A stretch of 61,508 bases of DNA, the filler included, from Globobulimina sp. (Eukaryota): NCBI GenBank assembly GCA_003354225.1. It is 12 parts of 12 records of this genome, joined end to end, with 100 filler letters (N's around TTAATTAATTAA, not from the genome) between each part and the next. Parts side by side here need not be neighbours in the genome. Positions count along the whole stretch, not along the records: positions 10,294 to 15,337 come from PIVH01000761.1; 11 more parts are not named here. The stretch is one strand, 5' to 3'. Positions within the stretch are counted from its first letter, which is position 1, and each line of letters begins with the position of its first letter. The notes under the pieces are model-generated. The model was not told where the DNA came from. It made no database searches and was given only the letters and a program-made list of their open reading frames with translations. A program made the translations under genes and the position numbers. Positions 5,049-50,282 of the stretch are shown here, piece after piece.

Positions 5049-5148
5049 NNNNNNNNNNNNNNNNNNNNNNNNNNNNNNNNNNNNNNNNNNNNTTAATTAA
5101 TTAANNNNNNNNNNNNNNNNNNNNNNNNNNNNNNNNNNNNNNNNNNNN
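5049..5148. other. Artificial contig linker (N44-TTAATTAATTAA-N44), first of 11
   Basis: Identical 100-nt spacer with stops in all six frames, also at 10194-10293, 15338-15437, 20478-20577, 25614-25713, 30750-30849, 35882-35981, 41013-41112, 46142-46241, 51267-51366, 56390-56489. Intervening segment lengths never increase. Confidence 0.99.
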
Positions 5149-8809: not shown

Positions 8810-9976
8810 ATGGCAATGTTGTCTACGATCTTTAATATTTCCCACCTGTGCATCAGCAGCATCATATCTTTATCAATCCTGTTTGTATTATATCAATTCA
8901 TTCTCAATTTCACCAAATTAACAGCAAAGAGAGCATCCGAATTTTGCATTGGTTTATTTTTCATCGTCACCACTTTTATTTTTCTTTGCCTGTGGAGTTT
9001 TTTTATATTATCAAATTATTTACCACCTAAACCTTACGAATTCCATCATATAAATATACTTTTGGGCATATTATATATATTACAATATTATTCATTGTTA
9101 TTCTCCTTATTTGCTCGCTTACGTAACACATTCAGTAATTCGGGCTATTTAAAATTATCGGTAATGACAGTCAGAGTGTTTTACTGTGCATTTGCCTGCA
9201 CTCTAATTGCGATTATATCATTTTGCATAACTATAGAGACACGAATGCGAGGTACTGTTTTCTGGATATTTGCTATCGGATTTATAGCCTGTTTTGTCAT
9301 AACATTAATATTGACAATAAATTTATCGTTTATTTGCAAATTAATTAAAATATATAAATTCAATGCATCAAATGTCCAAATAATGAGAATCATTACAAAA
9401 ACAATCACATTGACCTTCATATCAACATTGGTAACAATATTATCACTCATATTTATCATTTATAGATTTGCTATAAACGCTGCATTTATATCGGTGTATA
9501 TTGCCTTATGCAGTGACTTACTGATTACATTTGATATTTATACCAATTTCCTGTGCATTGTTCTACCATTTAACTATTTCAATAAATTGTACAATATCTT
9601 ATGTGGTTGCACACATTCTAAATGTGAGCATATATGGAAAAGTGTAGTGATACCTACAGAAAGGGACGAAAATGAATTGCAATATCCGAACGACAGAGAA
9701 TTACAAATGGTGAAGCAAAATAGAGCTAAATCATCAGAGAATAAGTCATTGGCCAAAATATATTCGCGATCGGAAAGTTTAATCAAACAGCAACCGGTGC
9801 AAAAAGTAACAGCCATTAAACGTTCACATTCGATGTCTGCTCCAACAACACACAATTTCCTCAAAAAAAATAGCAAAATAACTGCTATCGACATATCAAT
9901 ATTACCTCCAATCGCGCCATCGAGAACGCCCACTATTTGTACACAACATAATGGCCAAAATGGTATGATATATTAA
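8810..9976 (+). CDS. 7TM GPCR-like receptor
   Basis: Seven hydrophobic helices; 'DIYTNFLCIVL...YNILCGCTH' at the last helix and tail; polar C-terminus. Confidence 0.75.
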   Translation: MAMLSTIFNISHLCISSIISLSILFVLYQFILNFTKLTAKRASEFCIGLFFIVTTFIFLCLWSFFILSNYLPPKPYEFHHINILLGILYILQYYSLLFSLFARLRNTFSNSGYLKLSVMTVRVFYCAFACTLIAIISFCITIETRMRGTVFWIFAIGFIACFVITLILTINLSFICKLIKIYKFNASNVQIMRIITKTITLTFISTLVTILSLIFIIYRFAINAAFISVYIALCSDLLITFDIYTNFLCIVLPFNYFNKLYNILCGCTHSKCEHIWKSVVIPTERDENELQYPNDRELQMVKQNRAKSSENKSLAKIYSRSESLIKQQPVQKVTAIKRSHSMSAPTTHNFLKKNSKITAIDISILPPIAPSRTPTICTQHNGQNGMIY

Positions 9977-10319
9977 ACAACATTTTATTATCAAACATAT
10001 GACATTTATGCTGTGGAAATAAATAGATCACCATTTAAATATGCATATACGAATAAGTTAATCTATTATCTATATTTGTTTATGTTAATAGTTTGTGAAT
10101 TATATGTGTTTGCTATTGGACAGATGCACCAAATACAATGAACCTAAGTGCTGCCGCAGCTACTCCAGTGTCAAATAAATATCACAGTCCCAANNNNNNN
10201 NNNNNNNNNNNNNNNNNNNNNNNNNNNNNNNNNNNNNTTAATTAATTAANNNNNNNNNNNNNNNNNNNNNNNNNNNNNNNNNNNNNNNNNNNNGAAATAG
10301 ACAAAATCGACAAAAAAGT

Positions 10320-10456
10320 GAGCGCACTGCTACATCCACAACATAGGCAACGTGTGGCTGGGCCGTAAATAATGCTGGACCTATTTTAGGAGTTGACCAA
10401 TGGACGTATTGGATCCGACGGAAGGATCAACAACGTTGCTTCCTCTATAGCTGCTC
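10320..10456 (-). ncRNA. Candidate novel structured RNA, copy 1
   Basis: Inverted paralog of 13861-13994. Stems preserved by one compensatory and three G-U-compatible changes; followed by AC-T6 on the minus strand. Confidence 0.5.
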
Positions 10457-10740
10457 TCTTTTTGTCTCTTTTGGTTTCTTTCTTTCTTTCTTTCTTGCGA
10501 CGTCTACTTACTTTTTACCCCAACAATCCACAATGTAGATTTTCTATTTTCTATAGGCAAACTTTTTGATGACTGCCCATTTGAGATAGCAAAATGGCAT
10601 GCAACGAGAAAAAAAAACAGTAAAGTCACCACAATAATTCAACAAAAATAATTATCCCTCACATCAACTCAACCGTACAAGAAATAGAAGTCGTAACCAC
10701 CATCACCATGATGGCAGTTCCCAATCGAGATAAACGACAC

Positions 10741-11147
10741 AAATCCGATAAAAATAAAAATAGAAACATCAAAAACTCAAACCGATGATAATAAATGCGC
10801 AGTGATTGAATCTCGCAATGAATTTGCAAACAAATATCGAGCGAGCCACAATGAATAAATATTACAATGATGTGATCGTAGTCAAATTGAACAATTATTA
10901 CAACAACAAATTAAATCCAATCCGCGTTTTATGATTGAAAACGACGAAAGTTTCCGGAATCGCATTGCCAAATTAAAAGGTCTAAACACTTACGAATTAA
11001 AAGGATGAGTTTAATTCGATGACCACATTTACGGCAAAAACAACCTGCACAACAACCGAGAAAGAAAAGGGCCTGAAAAACAAGCGCGAATTGAAGCACA
11101 TTGACCGCCTGAAAGAATACCCCAAACTGCGGAAGTTGATGCAGTCT
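10741..11147 (+). pseudogene. Decayed fragment of an unknown multicopy ORF (repeat Y, copy 1)
   Basis: 10741-11080 is highly similar to 14412-14680. Translates as 'NKCAVIESRNEFANKY...DESFRNRIAKLKGLNTYEL...' with stops and frameshifts. Confidence 0.7.
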
Positions 11148-11148
11148 A

Positions 11149-12151
11149 AAATCAGTTGCGTTAAATCTGAAAAAAAGAGGCGATCAAATCTTATGTGATA
11201 AATTAATATCGACAGCCGATGTTGTAGTCGAATCATTTCGTCCCGGCGTTATGAAAAAGTTCGGTTTTGCTCCTAAACAATTACTAGCAAAATATCCAGC
11301 ATTAATCATCTGTTCAATATCCGGATATGGGCAGACTGGGCCAAATCATATGAGAGCTGGCCATGATATTAATTATATATCAAAAGCGGGTTTAACCGGA
11401 TTGATGAAAAAACCCACATTGCCACCGGCACAAATCGCAGATCTGTGCGGTGGTTCCTTCCCTGCGGCGTTACAAATAATTGCTGCTTTGTACTACCGGC
11501 AAAACAACGGCAATAAAGGCAATATCATTGACGTTTCAATGACTGATTGTTCATATGCTTTAGGTACGGAATAGGACACTTTTATATGTATAGGTAATAT
11601 GTGTTGCACTTCAATGATATTCAGGCTGTTTCCCGCAAACTATGGTTCAAAATACAAGCGCCAAAACGAGCGGAGGCCAGTTTCATTTATGTGGCGCTGT
11701 GCCATGTTACAATGTTTATGAATGTCAGGACGGATATATTTCAGTTGGTGCTCTGGAACCAAAATTTTGGAAACGTTGCTGTTTGGAAATCTTGAATGCG
11801 AAACATTTGGTGCACAAAGGATTGGTTTTGAATAAGCAGTGCGAGAGAGTCAAGGAAGAAGTTGCACAGATATTTAAGCGAAGGACTTGCAAAGAATGGC
11901 AGCCAATCATTGCCAAATCTGATTGTTGTGTAGAGATTGTTCCATTGGTAGAAGAGGTTCGAAACGATCCTCAATTAATTGCGCGAGATTTGAATATTAA
12001 AGTTAATGTCAGGAATAAAAGAAAAAATAAATCGCAAATAATCACGGTACCCAAATCACCGTTGAATATGTTGCATGGAGTTGACTTTCAAAGTAAACCC
12101 GCTCCAGCAAGGATTGGGCAAAATAATGATGAAATATTGAGTAAGTTGTGA
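11149..12151 (+). CDS. CaiB/BaiF family III CoA-transferase (AMACR-like), 5'-truncated
   Basis: KSVALNLK, DVVVESFRPGVM, SISGYGQTGP, GHDINY, YNVYECQDG, VGALEPKFW; intron 11564-11624. In-frame TGA at 11137, so the usual N-terminal region (about 70 aa) is absent. Confidence 0.85.
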
Positions 12152-12197
12152 TTTGAAGTTGCTGTTTTCTCAGAAAAAAAACTTTTTTTTTAACAGA

Positions 12198-13112
12198 ATG
12201 TCTTTGATTCAAGCTACACAATGCGCAAATATCGCAAGCCTGCTAAACCAGGATGGATTGCACGATACGACGTTTATTATTGGTCCACAACAGAAAGAGT
12301 TTAATGTAAATCGTTTGTTTTTAGCAGCAATCAGTCCCGTATTGAAAGCAATGTTATTTGGTCAAATGAAGGAAAGTAAATCAGCGTCAAACATAACAAT
12401 CGAGGATATTGATGAAGATGCATTTGAATCAGTGGTTAATTTCGCATATTGTGCTGATCCATCAATAACAATGAATAATGTATTAGCAATAATTCGCGTC
12501 AGTGACAAGTATCAGATCTCATCATTGTCGATTATTTGCGATGAATATTTATTATCGACAGTGAATGGCAATAATTTATGTAAATTAATACATGATTCCA
12601 TGCAATTAAAGGTTCATAATCTAACTAAAATATGTCAACAATGCATTAAAAAATGCTCCTCGCAAACTGATAAAATATTGTCGTCGAATGATTTCTTAAA
12701 AATGAATGTTGAATCAATGAAAGTATTGTTGCGGTCTGATTATTTGAGAGCAACTGAAGAGGAGATATTTGAGTATGTATTGAAATGGGTAGGTTTCCAA
12801 AGTAAATATCGATTGGATAAAAATATTAGGGTTAAAATACAAAATAACTGTCATGATGATGAAAAAGGCGATGATATTACCTGTGGACAGTATAAAATGT
12901 ATTTATTTGAGGCAATAAAACCATTGATAAGATTTGGATTGATGGATGGAGCATATTTTGTTAATAATGTAAAACCGCAAAAAATATTAAATGACGCGGA
13001 ATTGGTACAGGTTTTATGTTACTTTCAATATATTTCGAAAAGAACTGTCAAACTTTTCCTATTTTCAACTAAACAGAGCGAAGCGAGGTGTGGTCCGAGC
13101 GAAGCGAGGTGA
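12198..13112 (+). CDS. BTB/POZ-BACK domain protein, C-terminus probably cut by a repeat
   Basis: 'DTTFIIG...FNVNRLFLAAISPVLKAMLFGQMKES', 'EEEIFEYVLKW', 'IRFGLM'. The last codons come from a GAGCGAAGCGAGG repeat. Confidence 0.85.
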   Translation: MSLIQATQCANIASLLNQDGLHDTTFIIGPQQKEFNVNRLFLAAISPVLKAMLFGQMKESKSASNITIEDIDEDAFESVVNFAYCADPSITMNNVLAIIRVSDKYQISSLSIICDEYLLSTVNGNNLCKLIHDSMQLKVHNLTKICQQCIKKCSSQTDKILSSNDFLKMNVESMKVLLRSDYLRATEEEIFEYVLKWVGFQSKYRLDKNIRVKIQNNCHDDEKGDDITCGQYKMYLFEAIKPLIRFGLMDGAYFVNNVKPQKILNDAELVQVLCYFQYISKRTVKLFLFSTKQSEARCGPSEAR

Positions 13113-13154
13113 GTCTAACTAGAACTAGTTTAATTTTCCGAGCAGAGCGAGGTG
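13076..13154 (+). mobile_element. GAGCGAAGCGAGGTG repeat cluster, possible non-autonomous Helitron-like end
   Basis: Three copies (13076, 13097, degenerate at about 13138-13154) with CTAG/CTAGT at about 13119-13129. Helitron assignment is inference. Confidence 0.4.
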
Positions 13155-13438
13155 AAAACCGATATATTGATATCGATCGATTTTGTTGCTTTCAAAGGTT
13201 TTCACAGAAAAGGAAAAAGTTGTTGATGTTTTGCATAAAAACTGTATAGACATCAAAAAACTTTATGAGAAACACAATATTCGCAAAACATGATAGTTTT
13301 TCACTTTGTAATTTGCAGCAATGAATATTTCACAATTAGTTTTATTCAATTTCAATTCATGATTATTCGATTTTTATTAAATATTATTAACAGTTCTTTA
13401 GATCATTGTTGTCTGCAATGTATCAAGTTTGTATTCCA

Positions 13439-13744
13439 TTATGGGCCTCCACCTCCTATCCATTCTCGATCTCCATACTTATGATCTTCGCGATGCTCTC
13501 CACCCGCTCTCGAGTCTGCTTTTCGAGCTTTTTTCTTTTCCTTCGCAATGGTCCGATTAATAGTTTTCTGAATCAACTGCGACGACGTCTTCTCGTCCAT
13601 AATCTCGACATTGCACACATTCACATCGTTGCCATTTGCCTCCATTTAGTTGTCCATATTGTTCAGATTCCACTCATTTAGCTCCTCCCCTTTGCCGTAC
13701 ACATATTTCTGTCGCTCAATAATCGAGTCAATACAGTATCGCAT
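13439..13744 (-). pseudogene. Decayed unknown ORF
   Basis: Same-frame coding-like segments (MRYCIDSIIERQKY... / MEANGND...EWIGGGGP) separated by TAA at 13646-13648. Confidence 0.35.
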
Positions 13745-13860
13745 TTTTTCACATTGTCGAATTTGAAACTTACAAAACAAAACAAAAACTTTACTCTTTT
13801 TTTTTCTTCTCTCAAATGTTTGCCATGGATATTTGGATTTGGAGATAATAAACACAAAAA

Positions 13861-13994
13861 GTGCCGCTATAGAGGAAGCAACGTTGTTGACCCACCTGTC
13901 GCGATCCAATACGTCCATTGGTCAACTCCTAAAATAGGTTCAGCATTATTTACGGCCAAGCGCTGCCTATGTTGTGGATGTAGTTAAAGGGCAC
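13861..13994 (+). ncRNA. Candidate novel structured RNA, copy 2
   Basis: Closing stem GTGCC/GGCAC; stems GCTATA/TGTAGT, AGGA+GTTGACC/GGTCAAC+TCCT and ATAGG+CAGC/GCTG+CCTAT; T5 directly downstream. Confidence 0.5.
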
Positions 13995-14411
13995 TTTTTG
14001 TGGGACATTTGATGCTATTTGGTCTATTTCAGCGTGTGTTTCAAAACAAAAGCAAATTTATATTAACTGTTTGCATTATAACAAAATATACAGTGGATTC
14101 AATTCGCACAATCAGCTATTTTTAAATAAAGAATTCATGCATGCATGTGCCGCTCGTTATTATTTATTTGCTTATCGATCGAATTTAATTTAATGGTTTG
14201 TTTAATTCATTTGCTTATAATCCAAATCCTTTAAATGTTTTTGAAATAGTCAGTTTTTTTTCCAGTCTGTTCAATTCATCTTGTTCTAAAGTCTTAATGT
14301 CTGCAGGCAGTGATATATATTTATAAATAGCGCCGAATGTATCGAAATGTCTTCGGAATTTGCCTGGAATCGCTGACATCGTGGAATTATTTCTAAAAAA
14401 TGTTTAAATCC

Positions 14412-14680
14412 AAATCCGATGGCGAGCGATTAAAATAAAAACAAAAACAAACCGACAATGACAATAAATGCGCAGTGATTGAGTCTCGCAATGAATTTGC
14501 CAACAAATACCGTTGTCAAATTGAATAATTATTACAACAACAAATTAAATCCGCGACGAAAGTTTCCGGAATCGCATTGCCAAATTAAAAGGTCTAAACA
14601 CTTACGAATTGGATGAGTTCGATGACCACATTTACGGCAAAAACAACCTGCAAAGCAACCGGGAAAAGGGCCTGAAAAAG
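14412..14680 (+). pseudogene. Repeat Y, copy 2 (decayed unknown ORF)
   Basis: Direct paralog of 10741-11080 with different indels. Confidence 0.7.
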
Positions 14681-14681
14681 C

Positions 14682-15337
14682 GATGAGTATGGTGATGGTG
14701 GTGGTGATGGTTACGGCGATGGATACGGTGCTGAGCAGTTCCAAGAGGAAGAGAAAACATATCAGGAATTATGGCAGGAAGAGCTACTTCGATACGAAGA
14801 CCAATTGGCAAAAGAAGAGGAGATCCGGGAGAAAGCAGCCAAGCACGAAACCACATTCACGAGCTTAGCCTGGGAAAGAGGCGTATTTATCTCTCGCGAT
14901 TTGAAGAAGGGAAAAGTAAACATATTGGATAAAAACAACCAAAAACGGCAGTTGGCCATGAACGAAGTGATAATGCCCACCTCCGAGTTGAAGACCTTTA
15001 TCCCGGCCGAGGACGCCTTGAAGATTGAAAATATCGGCGGTACTATCAATTTGCGCGACTTCCACGACAATGAGTACACGATCGTGAGTGATGTGGCTGG
15101 CTTTGTCAAGTATTTGATCACTCCGTCGTGTTTGAACCGGTTGACGCGATTGGAGCGTTTCCCCAAATATGAGTTTGAAAATATGATAAACAACGAAGAA
15201 GTGCGCAATTTCTATGTATTGAACCGATTATTGTACGCCGCGCACGAATTGTTGATCAATGTGAATGACGGCACGGTGTTACGGAAAGGCAAGACAAAAA
15301 AGCAAGATTTCACCCGCGGTAAACAGCTCTGGGAGTA
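14682..15337 (+). CDS. Unknown ORF continuing from repeat Y (probably element-encoded), 3'-partial
   Basis: Open frame 'DEYGDGGGDGYGDGYG...EEEIREKAAKHE...KQLWE' running to the contig end; visibly more GC-rich than neighbouring genes; out of frame with the Y peptide. Confidence 0.5.
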
Positions 15338-15437
15338 NNNNNNNNNNNNNNNNNNNNNNNNNNNNNNNNNNNNNNNNNNNNTTAATTAATTAANNNNNNN
15401 NNNNNNNNNNNNNNNNNNNNNNNNNNNNNNNNNNNNN

Positions 15438-27578: not shown

Positions 27579-30500
27579 TTATGTTGCATTATTTGGCAAA
27601 CTATCGCAACATGTATGACAATACCAATTTCCATTGTCATCTAATGATTTTTGATCAACATTTCCATTGTCATCTAATGGTGTTTGATTACATTGAAAAC
27701 AGAAAGTTTGTTTTGTTTCATTATTTGCAAAGTCCGGTATATTAGAGATATCTTCTTGTACTGCTGAATGAGCGACCATTTCAATATTATTATTATCCGA
27801 TGTTTCCGATTTACTATCAATGGGTTGTTCCTTTGTATCTCTATTAATATTTGTTGCGGTATCAACACTATGCACAGTTGTTTGTGATTGCGGTGTAAAT
27901 ATTTCTGCGCTTCTATTCAAAATAAAACATTTATTACAACAGCAATAATAATTATATCTCTTCTTTGCGTCATATTTAATTAACCGCCTCATTGGTTTTC
28001 TATACATCCAACATAATAATATTATAAATAATAAATTTAATGATAAATCAATAATTCTATATACGATATTAAATTCATCCCAATATAATGTAAAATATAT
28101 TGACGATACAAATTGAATCAAGAAAAATAATGTGATACAAAAATTAATAAATAATAATTTCCGCGCCGTCGACAAATCTTCACCGCCAAAGCTCTGTGCT
28201 TTTGACGTTTTCACCATATTTTTAAATAAAACCTTAGCGAGACATGCTGCATATATTATAAATACGAAACAAATAATGAGACAAATGCAGGACCACAACA
28301 TCTCAATGATCAATATATACTCATTAATATGCAACCAGTTTGACACAATTAATATAAAAACAATAATTGTGAACATTGCCATTAATATATTGACAACAAA
28401 CAGTATGATTTTAATCCGATCATTCATATTTTCGAACGTTGAACTGCTCATTGAATGCGTTAAAACAAACCATGTGAAAAATATTATTGAATAACTTATA
28501 AAATATACATTCAACGCTGCTAACAACAATAACGTCAATATATTAATAGTAACCGTATTATTTCTTGGATCCGGAGAAGATTTTAAAAAATAAAATGTCA
28601 CACAAATCATAAAGTAAATGATCGAAACAGCAAATAAAGTCAACATTACATAAACCGATAATTGCTTATATTTTAAATACTTATCAACAAAAAATGGATA
28701 GATCTCTAAGAAAATATATATTGCAATTAATAAGAAACACAAACCAAAGAACGCATTAATATAATCCCAATATTCCCACTCAAATAACTGATGCATAAAT
28801 GTGTTATGGTTGCAATCGTCTGCAGCATAAATATTGTGTATGGTGGCGAACGTTGTTAAGTGGGCGCATTCGCAGTGGATTTTATTTATGGTTTGGTTAA
28901 TTATTGTGATACATCCATTGTTTTGCCAAATATCAGCAGTAACATTTAAATACATACATTCATAGCCATCATTAATGTTGCATCCATCCAACGGATTACA
29001 ATTAAATTCAAATACAATATTGCTTGATAAGTTATTTGTATTTGTATTATTTCCTAATATTGTAATTGATATCGATTCGGATGATAAGGTTCCTTCTTCT
29101 TCGCATTCATTCGACGATTGTGATATATTTACCACACTCTCATTGGTATCAATTCCAACCATCAGCACATTTAATGAATTAGTCAAATCCAATGGATTCA
29201 ATTTATTTCCTTTATTGTTTATTTGTGGAATAAATACTGATATATTTTGAACAGTTACGGATATATTATTGTTATTTGATATTTTGGTTGAAAATAAACT
29301 GAATTTATCCCATTTAATAAGTATCTCTTCTCCAGGTATCGAGGTTGAAATTGTGGACAAAGAGGCAATGTATAAGGCGCTGGATAATAAGTTGTAAATT
29401 CCAATGTTATTTGAATATGATATTAATTCAATTAAAGGCTCAGCCAATAAATATAATAAATGTTTATAATTATCATCAATTTCTAGCTTTGATAAATAGT
29501 GCGTAATATCTTCATTTTTATAATATATTTTTACCACATTTGTGATGATTGACTCTGTCGAAATGCTTAATTCCTCGATATTATCATATCCAATTTCATC
29601 CACAATATATAAGCAAGGATCTAAAGTCGTCGATATTAGGTTTTCTATCATCGCTTTATTGTATTTATTTTTATAAAAATTAGACATCAAATTATTGCTA
29701 AAATGAACGGAATCCATCCATAATTTTAAAACTTGCGATAACAACACTACAAAATTCATATTATTCCCACATATTTCATTAATATTTGTGTTTAATGTCA
29801 TTAAAATTATACCCAAAATTTGCTGCAAACAGTGATTTGTGTTTTGTATTCCATCTCTAAAATCGTATAAATATTGCAAAGATACATAGGAAGTTTGCAA
29901 AACGTACCAATATCTTTCATAATCTGTCAGAAACGAATCAATATTAATAAATAATAGACTGTCATCAATGCATTGTGTGTAAGAATTTAATTGTACATCA
30001 CACACAATTGAATCAGAAGCAAATGCAGATCGTGAATCATATACAGTGGCTACCAACGCATTATTGCCAATCTGTAAATATATATCATTTACATATGACG
30101 TGGCTAATAAATGTGGATGCAAATATTGTCCATTGTTACTAAATTGGTATAACAAAGGCACGTTATCGCCATCGGCAAGCACGGATAAAGAAAATGTGTC
30201 CGTCTCTACATAGTCATTAATAGAATCGTAGAAAATAATTCCATTTTCGCAATTTGGTGCAATTGTGAATGAATTATAAATGATTTTAGGTCCGCTTAAA
30301 ACATAAATGCTAATAATTGAGGAATTGCCGCGTGCAATTAATTGCGAGTCAGCATCGTATTGCAATACTGTTAATTGTAATGAATAGGTCAGACCTGCAG
30401 TCAATATGTTTGCGGCTAATACTAAATTTAATGAATTGTCGGAAGAGTGACTGTATGTTATCATATCCTCATCGCTCAATAAACCATTTACTTCATACCA

Positions 30501-30749
30501 TTTATGCGTGGTTATCCAAACTAAATCATTGTAATCATGATTAAAATTCACAATATCTGCAATTATTCTCAGTTTATCATCGACATTTATTCTGTTCGAC
30601 AGTGCCGTGCTGGATATGACTAAAAATACAAACCCAAAATCAGTTTCATTTGCAAGTAGCACATTTGCGTTCAATTTGACAACATCAAAACATGCATCTC
30701 GAAACTCATTGTTTTTATCATATACTTGCAATGTAAACGAAAATTCATA
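27579..30749 (-). CDS. REJ-like + GAIN/GPS + 7TM adhesion-type receptor, 5'-partial
   Basis: GPS motif 'CMYLN...WQNNGC...CECAHLTTFA' with an intact HL|T cleavage site; REJ-like 'LVLAANILTAGLTYSLQL', 'DGDNVPLLYQF'; seven TM helices. Confidence 0.85.
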   Translation of the reverse strand, partial: YEFSFTLQVYDKNNEFRDACFDVVKLNANVLLANETDFGFVFLVISSTALSNRINVDDKLRIIADIVNFNHDYNDLVWITTHKWYEVNGLLSDEDMITYSHSSDNSLNLVLAANILTAGLTYSLQLTVLQYDADSQLIARGNSSIISIYVLSGPKIIYNSFTIAPNCENGIIFYDSINDYVETDTFSLSVLADGDNVPLLYQFSNNGQYLHPHLLATSYVNDIYLQIGNNALVATVYDSRSAFASDSIVCDVQLNSYTQCIDDSLLFINIDSFLTDYERYWYVLQTSYVSLQYLYDFRDGIQNTNHCLQQILGIILMTLNTNINEICGNNMNFVVLLSQVLKLWMDSVHFSNNLMSNFYKNKYNKAMIENLISTTLDPCLYIVDEIGYDNIEELSISTESIITNVVKIYYKNEDITHYLSKLEIDDNYKHLLYLLAEPLIELISYSNNIGIYNLLSSALYIASLSTISTSIPGEEILIKWDKFSLFSTKISNNNNISVTVQNISVFIPQINNKGNKLNPLDLTNSLNVLMVGIDTNESVVNISQSSNECEEEGTLSSESISITILGNNTNTNNLSSNIVFEFNCNPLDGCNINDGYECMYLNVTADIWQNNGCITIINQTINKIHCECAHLTTFATIHNIYAADDCNHNTFMHQLFEWEYWDYINAFFGLCFLLIAIYIFLEIYPFFVDKYLKYKQLSVYVMLTLFAVSIIYFMICVTFYFLKSSPDPRNNTVTINILTLLLLAALNVYFISYSIIFFTWFVLTHSMSSSTFENMNDRIKIILFVVNILMAMFTIIVFILIVSNWLHINEYILIIEMLWSCICLIICFVFIIYAACLAKVLFKNMVKTSKAQSFGGEDLSTARKLLFINFCITLFFLIQFVSSIYFTLYWDEFNIVYRIIDLSLNLLFIILLCWMYRKPMRRLIKYDAKKRYNYYCCCNKCFILNRSAEIFTPQSQTTVHSVDTATNINRDTKEQPIDSKSETSDNNNIEMVAHSAVQEDISNIPDFANNETKQTFCFQCNQTPLDDNGNVDQKSLDDNGNWYCHTCCDSLPNNAT

Positions 30750-30849
30750 NNNNNNNNNNNNNNNNNNNNNNNNNNNNNNNNNNNNNNNNNNNNTTAATTA
30801 ATTAANNNNNNNNNNNNNNNNNNNNNNNNNNNNNNNNNNNNNNNNNNNN

Positions 30850-41349: not shown

Positions 41350-44300
41350 TTAATTGATTTGTACGTTTGTTGAATTGATATCGACCAAGCCAACATATTC
41401 GATTTTATCATCAATTTTCTTTGGTTTACATGCAGTTAACAATTTCATCCACCTTGTTTTTATCAACCATATTAAAGAGAAAAATATTTGATATAAGGAT
41501 GGAAATGCTAAGAATAAGAAAAATGCGACGTGCCCTTTCCGAGTGCTATATTGTACCAGCAATGCAATGATAATATCCAACATTATGGTACCCACTAATA
41601 TTTTAATTGTAGTGTTTTTTGGATTATTTCTTTTATGATTATGTAGTGGTTCTGTATCTGGTCTCGTACCCCATGATAAATCGTGCGTATTCGCAATGGC
41701 ATTGATAAAGAAAAATGTAACATAAAATGAGGAATACATAAAATAATGAAAACCTGTGCTTAATAAAATCTTTAAGGTTTTTAAATCTTTGCTAACCAAC
41801 GGTGCCAACACGAATGACTGCATAAAGAATACCAAAGGAATAATAATAACGGTTAGATTGAGTATATTCACTATGTTGTTATCAGTGTCTATATTATCGC
41901 TTGCTTGCCGTGGTCCGAATATCTTTATAATTTGTACCATCACACCAACCAATGTTAATGCGCCAAATATGTAGGACATTTTCAGCGTCATTGCTACGAC
42001 CGCTTGTTTTAACTTTGGCCGTATGTCACTCTGTACGATATAAATAAATATCAGATATATGAGCCAGGCAAACACAGTGAATACGATTGACAGCGACTGG
42101 ATGGCTGCTTGCTTTGTGCCATCTTTCTGAACATCAATGAGTATTTCATCCAATACACACGACAAACCATACTCAAATGATATGAAAAATATCAACGGCG
42201 GGGATAATAATATGAGGAAGTACATTAATAACTGCATGTAACAGAGTGATAACACATAATATCTTCGAAATAAAGGCACATTCCATCTGGCAAAGGATAT
42301 CTTGCGTAGTAGAAATAAAACCGCAGCAATACTGCCATTCAGCCATCGTCTCCTTTGTTTCATTAATTGTGTTAAATTCGGCATTGGGTCAAAATAGAAT
42401 ATACATTCAATTATCAATGAATGTCGAACTGATTCATCGCAATTCAACACCGACGATAATGTCAATATTCTATCTTCTGCCAATTTCATATTCCCCAAAA
42501 CTAAATCGACATTGTCCGGATCATTCTTTTCATTTATTTTATCAAAATACCAGCCTCTCACTTGGTCTTTTAACAGATATCTGGATCGGTAGAAGCCGCA
42601 CGGCCCGGGTATGACCGGTAAGAAACCGCCCAATAAATAACAGCCAATGGTACCATATAACGCCTCAAATTCGAACATTTGACATGACCGCAAATGTGCA
42701 TTCAGAGTTAATCGCCGATCAAATTCAGTATCTTCTATCTTATATGACACATAATCGCCATTGCTGTCATCTGGCTTCGTTAAATCAATTGGTTCGTAAT
42801 CTTCATTTTTAAATACATTATTTTCCCACCACTTTTTATCATTATTTCCCCACTTTTTATCATCATTTTCTTTAATTTTTTGACTGATCTCTTGAGAGTC
42901 TGCAGCTGCTATATAACCAACAGAAGGATATTTTGAGCTGTCTTCATCATCGATATCCGAAACATAATATTTTGAACTTAAAATGTCGACGTCTTCATTA
43001 TCATCTTGTGCCAATTGGGAGTTTTGTGTGAAATCAGCAGACGGATATATTGAGCTTTCGTGATAAGAAATATATTTTGAACTTGAAAGGTCGACGTCTT
43101 CATTTTCATTGTTTGGATGATCATCATTTTCTGCTTTTTCTTCATCAGCATCTTCGGAAACACCCGTTTCGCGCAGAAAACTCTCAAAATCCAGTTCCTG
43201 CTCAACTGTATACACTCTGCCTCTGCCAGTACAACATACAACATCTTCATTCTTTTTTTCTTTCATATGCATCATCATTTGATATAAAGCTTCTTTATTC
43301 ATCGTCGAATATGCGTCCGTAAAAAACATGTAATCACATTTGCACCACTCAGCAAATCCATATTTCCCTAAAAACCATTCATGCGAATTCCCCTTTTTCC
43401 TGTTATCAATTTTAATGATGGTGGTTACTTTCAAAAATAATTTTTTGTTATCATTATTAAACGGATTGATACATAGTTTCTTGTTAAATTTCGTTTGTAA
43501 TATAACAGTTTCATGTTCATTTTTCTCTTTATCTTTCTCTGAATAATCAAAATCACATTCCCTGCAATTATATAATTTCGCTAAATATCTTTTTGTCGAT
43601 AGATCAGCTTTGAACCAACCATCACCGACTAACAATACATTAAAATGCGTAAATTTATATCTTGATTCTTTCTTTTTAATATAATCGAAATTATAATATA
43701 GCGATCGCAGCGTCGCATGTATTTCCGTGGCGCTCTCATTATAAAAGGGCACAATCGCTGCAATGCTATCTGTTACCCGATCTGTGTCATGCTCGTCGGT
43801 GCCAATAATGAATTCATTGAAATATTTTTTCCTGTTTTCTCTCCGTGGTTTAAAATCTGGAAATATTTTCATTACAGATTTAATTCTTTCGTTTGGATTT
43901 ATGCAATTCATAAATGCAAACTCTTTCATTTCACACTGTGACATATTTGCAGTTACACCTTGATTGGGTTCGGCCGATGGAGCGGATTTGAATAAGTTTA
44001 ATAAGCCAGTAATGCGTTGCGCATTTTTCGCCGCATTGTTCCGAATCGCTTCAATCATTTCAAATTTTTCTACATTGATATCAAAACTCGGTCGTCTTTT
44101 GATGTGATGTCCCACATGTTTCTGAATCACTTTTCTTGGCGGTTTGATAAATATTTCGCAGCAATATAACAAACTCAATGCTGTTAATAATAAGTAATAA
44201 TAAAGAATTCTGTACGTGTCATTATTAAATTCATCCAAATGAATTTCGTCTTTTATCATAGTGATGGTTCCATAGCTTAAGGCTGAGCATGTAATGCTTT

Positions 44301-44961
44301 TCAAAAATAAACCAGAATTGTAACGTTTTAATAAATAAAAAATATGCCTGGATATTAAAATGGATGTCGCCAAACAAATTGGTAAACACGAAAATAATAT
44401 GTTGGAGGGCGGTATTTTCGGAGATAATGTAATAACGTCCATTGCCAATATCAATCGCATGAATGGTGTGGTAAATAATAGGAACGAAAAGATCATCAAT
44501 TTTGTTGCCTGTGTTAATTTGTGAAAGAAATGAATTAAAATTGCCAAATATAATGGAAGCAACGCATAAATCAATTCAAATTCCCAGCAAAGGTATTTTT
44601 TATTGCCCTGATCTTCCAGCAATAATCCGAAGATTAAGGATGCTGCGTATCCGCAGGCACCAAAATAAAATGGAAACGCCGCTAAACTCCGATAGGGTGT
44701 GGACAGTATTTTAATTTTGAGGCCGCACAATGTAATAGTTATCATCAGCAGACATGAAATAAATAGCCAAATGCATGAGATTAGATACGTGATTTGCCAT
44801 ATTTGTAAGTGTTGCTGTCCATAGAGGATTGGTTGTAATTCTTGTACAGGTCGTCCATTGAGGATGGATTGTAAAAGGGAGACGAAGTTAACGCAATAGC
44901 CCATGCCCGCAACAATTGAGATTACACAGATTCTCATTATATCGCGTGTGGTGTCTCGCAT
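41350..44961 (-). CDS. CHS: Chitin synthase (GT2)
   Basis: 'PFYNE', 'KIDNRKKGNSH', 'QMFEF', 'PVIPGP', 'LAEDR', 'QRRRW', 'THDLSWGTR'; intronless, 1203 aa, with an N-terminal multi-TM region. Confidence 0.92.
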   Translation of the reverse strand: MRDTTRDIMRICVISIVAGMGYCVNFVSLLQSILNGRPVQELQPILYGQQHLQIWQITYLISCIWLFISCLLMITITLCGLKIKILSTPYRSLAAFPFYFGACGYAASLIFGLLLEDQGNKKYLCWEFELIYALLPLYLAILIHFFHKLTQATKLMIFSFLLFTTPFMRLILAMDVITLSPKIPPSNILFSCLPICLATSILISRHIFYLLKRYNSGLFLKSITCSALSYGTITMIKDEIHLDEFNNDTYRILYYYLLLTALSLLYCCEIFIKPPRKVIQKHVGHHIKRRPSFDINVEKFEMIEAIRNNAAKNAQRITGLLNLFKSAPSAEPNQGVTANMSQCEMKEFAFMNCINPNERIKSVMKIFPDFKPRRENRKKYFNEFIIGTDEHDTDRVTDSIAAIVPFYNESATEIHATLRSLYYNFDYIKKKESRYKFTHFNVLLVGDGWFKADLSTKRYLAKLYNCRECDFDYSEKDKEKNEHETVILQTKFNKKLCINPFNNDNKKLFLKVTTIIKIDNRKKGNSHEWFLGKYGFAEWCKCDYMFFTDAYSTMNKEALYQMMMHMKEKKNEDVVCCTGRGRVYTVEQELDFESFLRETGVSEDADEEKAENDDHPNNENEDVDLSSSKYISYHESSIYPSADFTQNSQLAQDDNEDVDILSSKYYVSDIDDEDSSKYPSVGYIAAADSQEISQKIKENDDKKWGNNDKKWWENNVFKNEDYEPIDLTKPDDSNGDYVSYKIEDTEFDRRLTLNAHLRSCQMFEFEALYGTIGCYLLGGFLPVIPGPCGFYRSRYLLKDQVRGWYFDKINEKNDPDNVDLVLGNMKLAEDRILTLSSVLNCDESVRHSLIIECIFYFDPMPNLTQLMKQRRRWLNGSIAAVLFLLRKISFARWNVPLFRRYYVLSLCYMQLLMYFLILLSPPLIFFISFEYGLSCVLDEILIDVQKDGTKQAAIQSLSIVFTVFAWLIYLIFIYIVQSDIRPKLKQAVVAMTLKMSYIFGALTLVGVMVQIIKIFGPRQASDNIDTDNNIVNILNLTVIIIPLVFFMQSFVLAPLVSKDLKTLKILLSTGFHYFMYSSFYVTFFFINAIANTHDLSWGTRPDTEPLHNHKRNNPKNTTIKILVGTIMLDIIIALLVQYSTRKGHVAFFLFLAFPSLYQIFFSLIWLIKTRWMKLLTACKPKKIDDKIEYVGLVDINSTNVQIN

Positions 44962-45214
44962 TTTGATGTAGGTTGTTGTAGATGTGCGAAGAAGAGAAGT
45001 TTAAAAATCTAAATTTGGAGTATATTAATAGAATAAATGTGTTAAAAATATCATAATCCTAATTATGGAATAATGGTATAAAGTTATCATAATCCCAATT
45101 GTTAGTAATTTAGCATCCGCCATTGGCCATTATCATAAATGTTATTTTCATCTGTTTCAAAAACATAAAAACTCCAAACTAGTCCTAGTCTTCGATATTT
45201 AGAAAGTTTGGCTC

Positions 45215-48117: not shown

Positions 48118-50282
48118 ATGCAACCAAACGGCACAAACTCCAGCAAAAATACTAATAATAATTCCAATAATAGTAGTAATAAAAATAATTTTAACATTGG
48201 CAAAATAGCTCTGACACCGGCAGAGATTGATGGTTTGGTATACACTTATTTAAAATCGCGTGGTTATCAGTCTGCATTAAACGCATTGGCATCTGATTCA
48301 AGTGCAGATTTACATGTTAATAAAAAGCAATTCTCCCTTAATAACAATCCTTGCACTTAAACAAAACAAACAAACAAACAAACAAACAGTTAACAGACGA
48401 TCAAATATTAGCAAGTAAAGCATTGCATATAATAACGGATAAACACAAAACAATGTTACATTCAATCTACGGCTACACGCACAGTGATAACAACATCGAA
48501 TGGTTTGACGACAGCTACCAATATTTATATTTATGGGTCAATCAATGTTTGGACTGTTATCGCATTGAATTGCAACCCATCACTTATCCAATATTCATCC
48601 ATTTTATATTTGAGTTACTATTAAAATCACAAGTGGGCAAAGCTCAAAATTTCTATTACAAATACAACAAAGAACACAATACATTGCACGCTGAGGACCT
48701 CGGCCCCATTTATGAATTAATAGAAACCATTGATATCAATAAAAGCAACAAAAACAGCGCCAAAGACAAAGAGTCTGCATCCGGTGCCGCCACAGCATCC
48801 AAATCACGCATCCAATCCTATCCTATTTACCAACGATATCGAAAACACAAATATCAGATCACACTCAGTGTCGTATCACACAACTTATTCATGTCTTGGC
48901 TCAATTCCTCCAAATTAAATTTGCTAATTAAGACTGTCAACAACCACATTGATTTTAAAATAGTTTCATATTCCTCTCAAGCGCAGTCGCAGCCACATTC
49001 GCACGCTCTTAATCTCAATATAAATAAAGAGAAAATATCGTGGGGCATTGCACGGTATTTGGACCAAATTGAAACCAAAGCTTTGGGCGATAATAATCAT
49101 AAACGCAACCACAATAAAAGTCGTTTAATCCGGACAGAGTTTTGTGAGATTCATGCGTCGCAACCAAAATATTGCAAAGAGGATGAGAAATTAATCCATA
49201 ATGAAATAAAGAACCGTGTGTATGCCGGAGCGGATAGGTTGCCCTCCATTTGCTGCTATAAGTTTATCAATGGAGTTAATAACATTTCCTGTTCAAATGT
49301 GTCCAGCAATGGTCAATGGATAGTGGTCGGATGCAATGATTCCAAGATCAAACTATTTGACGTTGCTGCTGCTACTGGAAAGTCTGCAAATTCCTTTGAT
49401 AAGAATAATGTTGAAAGTAAGCAGGAAAATGAATATGTATCATCCACGCCGGTCGACACAAATAACAATTTGCATTGCAATAACTTAATTGGACACAAAT
49501 CGTCGATAACAGCGCTGTCCTTCTATCCGGATAATGAATTTTTTGTGTCCTCCAGCTGTGATAATACAGTGCGGCTATGGTCGTGCGAAAATGGAGGGGA
49601 ATGTTTGTCATTTTATCGAGGGCATTGCTTTCCAATTTGGGATGTTTCATTCAGTCCGTTAGGTTTGTATTTTGCCACTGGTTCACATGATAAGACAGCA
49701 CGGCTTTGGAGCACTGATCGTGGTGTACCACTGCGGATATTTGCAGGGCATATAGCGGATGTGGAATGTGTCGAATTTCATCCAAATTGCAATTATATTG
49801 TGAGTGGTTCCTCGGATCGAACCATCAGATGTTGGGATATTCAGTCTGGAAATTGTGTGCGACTGTTTTCAGGACATTTGGGCAGTATTAATCATTTGCA
49901 GTTTACTACTGATGGCAGATGCGTTGTTTCTGCGTCATCGGATAAGACGATCAGGATTTGGGATATTGCTACCTCGCAATGCATAAAAATACTAAATGGC
50001 CATACCAATCAGGTGCGGAAAATTGCGGTGGCGCACAGTGTGAATAGGAATGCGGTTATCATCGACCATGAGGATAATAAGAATAGCAACAGCCACAGTA
50101 GTAATAATACAAATATTTCGTCATTTCCATTGGTTATATCGGCCGGAATGGATAATAGTGTGAGGTTTTGGGATGTGAATAATATTCAAAAACCACTGAT
50201 TAAAACTATACAAACAAATATTTGTATTTCACATTTAACAATGACTAAAAGTAATTTGCTTATGTTGGCAGGAACTGTCTAA
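48118..50282 (+). CDS. TAF5: TFIID subunit 5 (LisH, NTD2, WD40)
   Basis: LisH 'VYTYLKSRGY', NTD2 'YRIEL..ITYPIFIH', 'LPSIC', WD repeats with 'YFATGSHDKTARLW', 'LRIFAGH', 'FHPNCNY'; intron 48316-48389. Confidence 0.93.

Follow-up and report, generated by a model that had tools for sequence, protein, structure and literature searches.

Genomic setting of the element

The DNA analysed here (61.5 kb, referred to below as the window) is not one chromosomal stretch; it strings together contigs of about 5.04 kb each in decreasing length. The linkers between contigs consist of 44 N, TTAATTAATTAA and a further 44 N. The DNA is eukaryotic, with a G+C content of about 33%, and its genes, which carry short GT..AG introns, include those for a CoA-transferase, a BTB/BACK protein, a chitin synthase, a DOCK protein and a TAF5-like protein. 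In EukProt, a protein from Nonionella stella, a foraminifer, showed 69% identity to the TAF5-like frame; identity to any other named protein was only about 30%, and the host was therefore taken as a foraminifer. Judging by its proteins, the window looks like DNA of a poorly sampled eukaryote of this group. The chitin synthase frame matched animal-type chitin synthase clusters and was not used for taxonomy, and a protein search with a FATC frame gave no match.

The element under study is present as two full copies, A and B, on a single contig (10294-15337), where they lie head to head, 3.4 kb apart, on either side of ordinary genes. The same contig carries a direct duplication (10754-11080 and 14429-14679, 86-95% alike) of the start of the CoA-transferase gene, and the duplicated gene starts are located 290 and 435 nt from the two element copies. 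The element is, however, oriented oppositely in the two cases relative to the gene start, and no relationship was seen between the two stretches of DNA that separate copy from gene start, indicating that the copies were not simply carried along by the gene-start duplication.

Copies of the element and copy number

The core of copy A, about 150 nt in length, extends from 13853 to 14002 (+), bounded by the outermost bases of its terminal inverted repeat, and contains the segment 13861-13994 of the original prediction. The core of copy B lies at 10309-10466 (−), only 15 nt from the start of the contig at 10294. Both copies were confirmed: segments 13852-13983 (+) and 10465-10330 (−) aligned with 87.6% identity over 137 columns (E 1.8e-40), and nhmmer detected copy A with a score of 171.8 (E 2.4e-52) and copy B with E 2.1e-49. 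The most conserved block, 59 nt in length (13903-13961, +), is 97% identical between A and B and holds an exact 37-mer. Alignment showed the whole 37-mer, noted beforehand as a shared block, to be the same in both copies; a 27-nt part of it occurred exactly twice in the window and never in 100 shuffles. The copies also end, as had been observed, at a T-run, which follows directly as T5 for A and T6 for B.

The description of the element as a two-copy one was incorrect. An exact 21-mer scan of a metagenome collection yielded one locus, L001, at the end of a 2465-nt contig, where a third copy is cut after ...CCTATGT. This copy is 93.4% identical to copy A over 121 nt, and identity between the cores of the copies ranges from 87.6 to 93.8%. 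The same 21-mer gave no match in the genome-contig and viral-contig collections searched, and a second conserved block gave none in the genome-contig collection. With a profile of the three cores, nhmmer detected no additional copy in the window or in L001 (best other match, E = 2), and a decayed mini-copy considered upstream of B and of A was accordingly unsupported. The readable sequences thus comprise two full copies and one cut copy, and two of the three (B and L001) stand at contig ends. Repeats tend to end contigs in short-read assemblies.

Four sequencing runs of one study (X1-X4) were then compared with the contig; DNA and RNA were assigned from the behaviour of an intron only, the library type being unrecorded. 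X1 behaves as DNA, as one of its contigs, 1721 nt in length, shows no differences and keeps the 61-nt intron, while X2, X3 and X4 behave as RNA, their contigs skipping the GT..AG intron at 11562-11622. Twelve X1 contigs cross position 13895, all reading T where copy A has C, and the loose ends of X1 contigs show at least three other kinds of flank around the element. The summed word depth of X1 was 633 and 1310 in the two bins of the element against about 8-12 over the neighbouring genes, a measure that is not equal to copy number and is used here only for the claim of many copies, far more than two. These observations altogether indicate that the element is multicopy. The X1 depth was also raised (140-232) over about 500 nt downstream of copy A, as in repeat-rich DNA.

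Contigs of the RNA runs also cover the element. The summed depth there was 55, 52 and 23 in X2, X3 and X4, respectively, with 4, 13 and 7 in the next bin downstream. This depth is no higher than that of neighbouring mRNAs while the DNA depth is about 60-130 times higher, so the RNA signal per copy is low. Small RNAs are easily lost from libraries. RNA-run contigs ending 32-40 nt from 13895 were considered as marking an RNA 5′ end and were set aside, since branching of the assembly graph at the variable helix described below fits them equally well.

The terminal helix

The two ends of each copy are complementary to each other. In copy A, the 5′ arm CACAAAAAGTGCC (13853-13865, +) and the 3′ arm GGCACTTTTTGTG (13990-14002, +), which includes the T5 run at 13995-13999, form a perfect inverted repeat of 13 nt. 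In copy B, the 5′ arm GACAAAAAGAGAGC (10453-10466, −) and the 3′ arm GCTCACTTTTTTGTC (10309-10323, −), with the T6 run at 10312-10317 inside, form 13 pairs with one A-A mismatch and one extra U. A terminal repeat as long as that of copy A was found once among 20000 random 150-mers of the window. The calculated duplex energy was −19.5 kcal/mol for copy A and −13.4 kcal/mol for copy B, values reached by none and by 9 of 2000 shuffles of the variable letters, respectively. When arms were exchanged between copies, the energy was only −8.2 kcal/mol for the 5′ arm of A with the 3′ arm of B, and −9.1 kcal/mol for the 5′ arm of B with the 3′ arm of A, indicating that the two arms have changed together. 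Copy A has C-G as outermost pair and UGCC/GGCA as its four inner pairs, and copy B has G-C and GAGC/GCUC, respectively. With two full copies and one cut copy, this covariation carries no statistical weight. Loose ends of X1 contigs suggested a further compensatory variant, CGC...GCG, which was not counted because it needs a bulged G and because the two ends possibly come from different copies.

The closing stem P1 of the original prediction is therefore real as terminal pairing but was drawn too short. The helix takes in both homopolymer runs, A5 and T5-6, and continues for three pairs past the latter, so that in copy A the perfect 13-nt repeat includes T5 and the 3 nt that follow. Ends that vary but stay complementary around an invariant interior are the pattern of the closing stem of an RNA, and not that of termini bound by a transposase.

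Predicted fold of the interior

For the interior, a three-way junction had been proposed, with two further stems, P2 and P3, and a pseudoknot or switch. Its 31 pairs were 93.9% paired across the three sequences, but 22 of the pairs never vary, no double change was observed in the aligned columns, and 258 of 500 shuffles paired equally well. The free energy of the whole molecule was at the level of dinucleotide shuffles (z-scores of 0.18 and −0.42), and stems P2 and P3 barely vary. Of the proposed stems, RNAalifold retained only P3; it gave the 5′ half another fold, and its covariation term had the wrong sign. In addition, L001 turns AGGA into AUGA and thereby breaks one pair of P2. The junction as a whole was thus not sustained, while two details on which it had been built were seen again in the alignment. 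The three single changes in stems (pairs 17/140, 42/72 and 94/119) exchange G-C for G-U on the GCTATAGAGG strand, and the indels between A and B, of 1 nt and 5 nt, fall in the loops of P2 and P3; the substitutions in the core either fall in predicted loops or give G-U on this strand.

As for the pseudoknot or switch, the predicted complementarity of UACGUCCAU to GUGGAUGUA, with two G-U pairs, does exist. An uninterrupted helix of at least 9 bp, however, was found in 158 of 300 dinucleotide shuffles, and the number of helices of at least 7 bp was typical of shuffled sequence. Both the three-way junction and the pseudoknot or switch are possible, but neither is supported beyond chance.

Extent of the unit and its flanks

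The core differs from its surroundings in base composition. Its G+C content is 46%, against 29-35% in the flanks and 29-32% in those of copy A, and this value was reached by only 2.4% of 5861 windows of 150 nt taken over the whole window. That the flanks of the copies diverge, as had been claimed, holds in so far as they are far less conserved than the core and contain indels. Homology between copies nevertheless continues for about 65-100 nt upstream and for at least 30 nt beyond the T-run.

Upstream of copy A, a module at 13788-13852 (+) contains a T-rich stretch, CTCAAATG at 13811-13818, TTTGCC and a ATAATAAAC stretch adjoining the helix. It can be aligned with the other copies but is much less conserved than the core; homology with L001 begins at 13789, and a 20-nt T-rich part matches 10626-10607 on the side of copy B. 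Directly before the A-run, ATAAAC(A/G)C is common to copy A and the loose ends of X1 contigs, which have ATAAACGC at this position. A run of T9 is also present inside the module. The corresponding module of copy B (10467-10640, −) carries TTGCATG, CTCAAATG at 10585-10578 and GTTTGCC, with about 95 nt, including a (GAAA)n run, lying between these motifs and the core. Over about 85 nt, the upstream regions of B and L001 gave a local alignment score of 31, against a mean of 12.3 and a maximum of 21 in 300 shuffles. The modules thus align in islands only, separated by indels: a T-run, TTGCATG (in B and L001), CTCAAATG (in all three copies) and GTTTGCC. The distance of CTCAAATG before the helix varies, being about 22 nt in L001, 42 nt in A and 115 nt in B. 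This module is a possible external promoter.

Downstream of copy A, a shared stretch was identified at 14003-14030 (+). Here GACATTTGATG recurs in a loose end of an X1 contig, and ATTTGGTCTATTTC recurs as ATTTTGTCTATTTC after copy B (10308-10294); ATTT(G/T)GTCTATTTC is common to A and B before the contig of B ends. Outside copy A, the unit is bordered by A-rich simple sequence, of which 13768-13787 and 14039-14057 are 89% alike over 18 nt, and an A-rich stretch also precedes the unit in L001.

Comparison with known classes of RNA and repeat

The element could not be assigned to any RNA family of Rfam, in agreement with the original prediction. A search of the whole window against Rfam 15 at the gathering threshold gave no match. 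When matches with E up to 10 were admitted for 9800-14500 (4.7 kb), four unrelated ones were obtained, all with E above 1 and none of them on the element. A lax search of 13780-14090 (311 nt) gave two irrelevant matches, both with E above 1 and far below gathering: mir-BART2 outside the element (13798-13852) and, partly over it, an unstructured lncRNA model on the minus strand (13782-13924, E 2.3). The Rfam families that gave no match include snRNAs, snoRNAs, 5S RNA, tRNA, SRP RNA, RNase P/MRP RNA, Y RNA, vault RNA, ribozymes and Class I RNA, and ARAGORN detected no tRNA in the window. Short resemblances to U1, U2, U4, U5, U6, U6atac, U7, U11, telomerase RNA and snoRNA were noted and rejected, none having a match in Rfam. 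A ribozyme had also been suggested, but nothing in the analysis of the element points to one.

Motif inspection led to the same result. Neither C (RUGAUGA) nor D (CUGA) boxes occur in copies A and B, and AAAAUA is a possible H box with no ACA after the second hairpin. A canonical Sm site, RAU(3-6)GR in the consensus given in a passage of PMC6053224, is absent from the core; ACUUUUUG sits within the terminal helix, and AUGUUGUGG is a loose fit only. No convincing donor site of a spliced leader was recognised, the candidates being AAC|GUUGUU or, after 77 nt, AUAG|GUCCAG, and no element sequence was found on mRNA 5′ ends among the loose ends of RNA contigs listed.

With respect to transcription by RNA polymerase III, the GCTATAGAGG strand ends in T5 or T6 and contains no internal run of 4 or more T, whereas the opposite strand also ends in T5 but has an internal T4. 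By eye, against the box consensus, no convincing pair of A and B boxes was found in the element: GGTCAACTCC resembles a B box, but the region of the A box fits poorly and differs in L001. Of the proposal of an undescribed RNA of polymerase III type, the small RNA part is a fair reading of the conservation, the G+C contrast and the complementary ends, while polymerase III is suggested by the T-run alone. Termination within this T-run would fit poorly, because the run lies inside the terminal helix and the helix continues for 3 bp past it.

Among repeat classes, features of retroposons and of MITEs were examined. The T-run strand ends in T5 or T6 and not in an A tail. The likeness between 13768-13787 and 14039-14057 could represent the tail and target site of a unit of about 270 nt, as judged from copy A alone. 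No target-site duplication was found at the inverted repeat of A (...AATAAA / GGACAT...) or of B (...AAGA / GATTTT...), and homology between copies continues outside the inverted repeats on both sides, in disagreement with the structure of a MITE. The tested open frames of at least 120 aa near the element gave only the CoA-transferase and the BTB/BACK protein, with no reverse transcriptase or transposase. Copies A and B do not represent the opposite termini of a single transposon, since they stand head to head around ordinary genes, lack target-site duplications and share sequence outside the repeats. The situation that had been named as pointing to a terminal inverted repeat, copies paired as termini with such duplications, was thus not encountered.

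Discussion

The observations are best accounted for, with about an even chance of being correct, by an undescribed family of dispersed, multicopy genes for a small non-coding RNA. An undescribed small RNA is a fair reading because Rfam and tRNA searches gave no match, the conservation and G+C content of the core contrast with those of the flanks, the ends are complementary and no T-run is present inside. The uneven conservation likewise argues for an RNA gene, as a single inserted unit decaying neutrally would lose similarity at the same rate throughout. Further arguments are the single changes that give G-U on one strand only, the indels placed in predicted loops, the T-run at the end, the upstream motif islands common to the copies, the cover by contigs of the RNA runs and the missing target-site duplications. 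The unit would then consist of a weakly conserved upstream module of about 70-100 bp acting as an external promoter, a strongly conserved core, rich in G+C and about 150 nt long, and a short downstream stretch, and the transcript would be read from the GCTATAGAGG strand. The helix of about 13 bp, different in sequence from copy to copy but with complementarity kept, may join the 5′ and 3′ ends of the transcript and tie them together so as to protect or define them. The invariant blocks GAAGCAACGUUGUUGA, the 37-mer, CAGCAUUAUUUACGGCC and UGCCUAUGUUGUGGAUGUAG could provide the binding surface of a ribonucleoprotein for a protein or RNA partner.

Several observations stand against the RNA-gene reading. 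The folding energy of the whole molecule equals that of shuffles, and RNAalifold prefers another fold of the 5′ half. A polymerase III transcript stopping in the T-run would lack the 3 bp beyond it. The RNA depth per copy is low, and the ends of RNA-run contigs may reflect graph branching. Copies B and L001 stand at contig ends, with raised DNA depth downstream of copy A; high copy number and dispersal are typical also of a mobile repeat, and A and L001 both have A-rich simple sequence beside the unit.

The main rival, which we consider less likely, is a small non-autonomous mobile element or dispersed repeat, whether SINE-like, a MITE or of foldback type, or else a longer retroelement's abundant end. 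Its conserved core would be young or would function in mobilisation, and the RNA would represent read-through from a few copies. Many dispersed copies with differing flanks, the large excess of X1 word depth and the position of two of the three readable copies at contig ends are all expected of such a repeat. The 13-nt terminal inverted repeat of A and the lack of a thermodynamic fold signal agree with it, the raised depth over about 500 nt downstream of A allows a longer unit with truncated copies, and the A-rich borders allow a retroposon of about 270 nt. Over-sampled non-genic sequence is, moreover, present in foraminiferal genomes, according to a passage of PMC3079666. Against this explanation, target-site duplications are absent at the inverted repeats of A and B, and the copies share sequence just beyond the repeats on both sides, so that the arms do not mark where a mobile unit ends. 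Variation is greatest in the arms and smallest in the interior, the reverse of what is expected for termini bound by a transposase, and conservation is very uneven along the unit. Neither a head like tRNA, 5S or 7SL RNA nor, by eye, a convincing pair of A and B boxes was found, and a SINE headed by the upstream module would have its polymerase III transcription stopped by the T9 run. Neither reverse transcriptase nor transposase was found among the nearby frames of at least 120 aa. A mobile repeat thus accounts for the copy number and the contig breaks, but only poorly for the uneven conservation, the complementary arms and the missing target-site duplications.

Distinctly less probable is an element acting at the level of DNA, for instance a protein-binding or hairpin-forming site copied together with its surroundings, in which the inverted repeat functions as DNA. 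The repeat is symmetric, with an A-run and a T-run on both strands, and extends past the T-run; in addition, the two related gene starts noted above (10754-11080 and 14429-14679) each have a copy a few hundred bases upstream. Their orientations to these gene starts are opposite, however, with unrelated intervening DNA, G-U pairs arise from the single changes in predicted stems on only one of the strands, the element is covered by contigs of the RNA runs, and an invariant interior of 120 nt is long for a binding site.

A bolder special case of the RNA-gene reading, a family of spliced-leader RNA genes in a lineage where trans-splicing is unknown, has only a slim chance of being correct. It would be the first in a foraminifer, and its 5′ part would be donated to mRNAs by trans-splicing. 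The element is multicopy, is conserved over about 130-150 nt, and has stem-loops and a terminal T tract, all of them general traits of such genes, and trans-splicing exists in one rhizarian, Paulinella, as described in part of PMC6053224. For the element, no good donor follows a leader of usual length, a canonical Sm site is lacking, the 5′ end pairs with the 3′ end and not in a local hairpin, and no loose 5′ end among the RNA contigs listed resembles it. Finally, a functionless remnant of a local segmental duplication with chance complementarity, as the 3.4-kb spacing of the copies on a 5-kb contig with a duplicated gene start might suggest, is scarcely credible in view of the third copy (L001) in a different context, the 12 X1 contigs across the element, the opposite orientation to the duplicated gene start and a terminal complementarity far beyond that of shuffles in both copies.

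If the element is an RNA gene, its nearest analogue in architecture would be the Class I RNAs of dictyostelids. In the parts of PMC7919456 that describe them, these are lineage-restricted small RNAs of 42-65 nt, with many genes and a variable interior; a short stem, kept in structure and not in sequence, joins the ends, and an 11-nt motif adjoins the 5′ stem. An upstream motif, DUSE, is located at a fixed distance of about 60 nt, and a T-run follows many of the genes (PMC7919456). The element is alike in the many genes, the stem joining the ends, the conserved motif, the upstream motif and the T-run. It differs in its length of about 150 nt, its nearly invariant interior and the varying distance of CTCAAATG; it shows neither likeness in sequence nor a match in Rfam, and its host belongs to a different eukaryotic supergroup. 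The likeness would thus be one of design and not of membership.

Y RNA and vault RNA are polymerase III transcripts of about 80-150 nt whose ends are paired and whose conserved loops are bound by proteins, and their genes are followed by a T-run. Their oligo-U tail is single-stranded, and their gene copies are few. The element resembles them in paired ends, T-run and size range, but its U-run lies inside the helix, its copies are many and it matches neither Rfam model. By eye, neither the bulged helix bound by Ro nor the A and B boxes of vault RNA were recognised in the element.

SINEs and MITEs are short, non-coding, high-copy and dispersed sequences, sometimes transcribed, and MITEs carry terminal inverted repeats. 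The element is unlike both in that no target-site duplication was found at the inverted repeats of A and B, and in lacking a tRNA, 5S or 7SL head and an A-rich tail on the T-run strand; it is unlike MITEs in that the shared unit extends beyond its inverted repeat, which varies between copies.

Spliced-leader RNA genes, in the portion of PMC6053224 that deals with them, occur in tens of copies with a conserved region of about 130 nt carrying stem-loops, and most of those in protists end in a T tract. Other rhizarians, including Reticulomyxa, were compared in the same account, with the conclusion that trans-splicing arose in Paulinella or was lost elsewhere (PMC6053224). Compared with the spliced-leader RNA of Paulinella, the element lacks a plausible leader with donor and an Sm site, and its sequence is carried by no mRNA end among the loose ends of RNA contigs listed.

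A 16-mer of the core was absent from the literature text searched, and the titles and few passages retrieved on foraminiferal snRNAs, other non-coding RNAs and repeats contained no account of foraminiferal small RNAs and no mention of an element of this type. As a sequence family the element is new, while its kind is familiar, either a lineage-specific multicopy small RNA or a small repeat. As a candidate RNA, we regard the element as a good lead in a neglected lineage. If it is a mobile repeat, it is ordinary and matters mainly as a cause of assembly breaks.

Genomic knowledge of foraminifera appears thin. We consider it conceivable, at somewhat less than an even chance, that a class of structured small RNA not described so far, about 150 nt in length, exists in foraminifera, encoded by some hundred dispersed genes (in order of magnitude) that each have an upstream module, with a co-varying terminal helix and an invariant interior, forming the core of an abundant ribonucleoprotein with no counterpart in Rfam. 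If this holds, the element would be an easy marker of foraminiferal DNA in mixed samples, and a conserved, stem-closed, multicopy RNA would offer a handle on the RNA biology of a major neglected lineage.

Genes and repeats around the small-RNA-like element

The repeated core referred to as copy A (13853-14002, plus strand) is flanked by sequence with its own features. Over the ~500 nt on its 3' side (14012-14518), word depth in X1, the run that behaves as DNA, was 14-23x that of single-copy neighbours, a measure of summed word depth and not of copy number, and short X1 contigs were found to match 14040-14189 and 14307-14442. This high-depth stretch is either a separate repeat or an extended version of the unit to which copy A belongs. 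Immediately 5' of copy A is a small gene encoded on the opposite strand (13439-13760, minus strand), with good cover in the RNA runs. Between 13612 and 13650, the corresponding RNA contig has 193 additional letters, indicating that the expressed form of this gene differs from the locus.

A CoA-transferase family III gene and, directly after it, a BTB/BACK gene occupy 11140-13112 on the plus strand. The former contains a 61-nt GT..AG intron (11562-11622), which is removed by splicing in runs X2-X4, classed as RNA on that basis. Among the RNA contigs listed, ends fall between 12153 and 12205 in this region, and the two genes are therefore probably expressed as two transcripts. A direct duplication (10754-11080 and 14429-14679; 86-95% identity in blocks) covers the initial part of the CoA-transferase gene together with the region upstream of it. 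The second duplicate leads into another reading frame (14676-15337), for which no Pfam match was detected.

Across 11180-15062, contigs of X2-X4 differ from the window at ~2% of coding positions and X1 is identical to it. All four runs are recorded as one sample. This mismatch suggests alleles, paralogues or mixed strains.

Composition of the window and its other proteins

The window (1-61508) consists of 12 contigs in series, each of ~5.04 kb and ordered from longest to shortest. The contigs are joined by artificial linkers of the form N44-TTAATTAATTAA-N44 (the first three span 5049-5148, 10194-10293 and 15338-15437), and sequences on either side of a linker are thus not genomic neighbours.

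A TAF5-like WD40 protein (48345-50282, plus strand) shares 69% identity with a protein of the foraminifer Nonionella stella, in contrast to only ~30% with any other named protein; named databases represent the host lineage very poorly. Two further proteins are unexpected-looking in a protist. One is a chitin synthase (41350-45000, minus strand) whose closest atlas clusters comprise animal-type chitin synthases; the other, a large protein (27579-30797, minus strand), carries a GPS (GPCR proteolysis site) motif.
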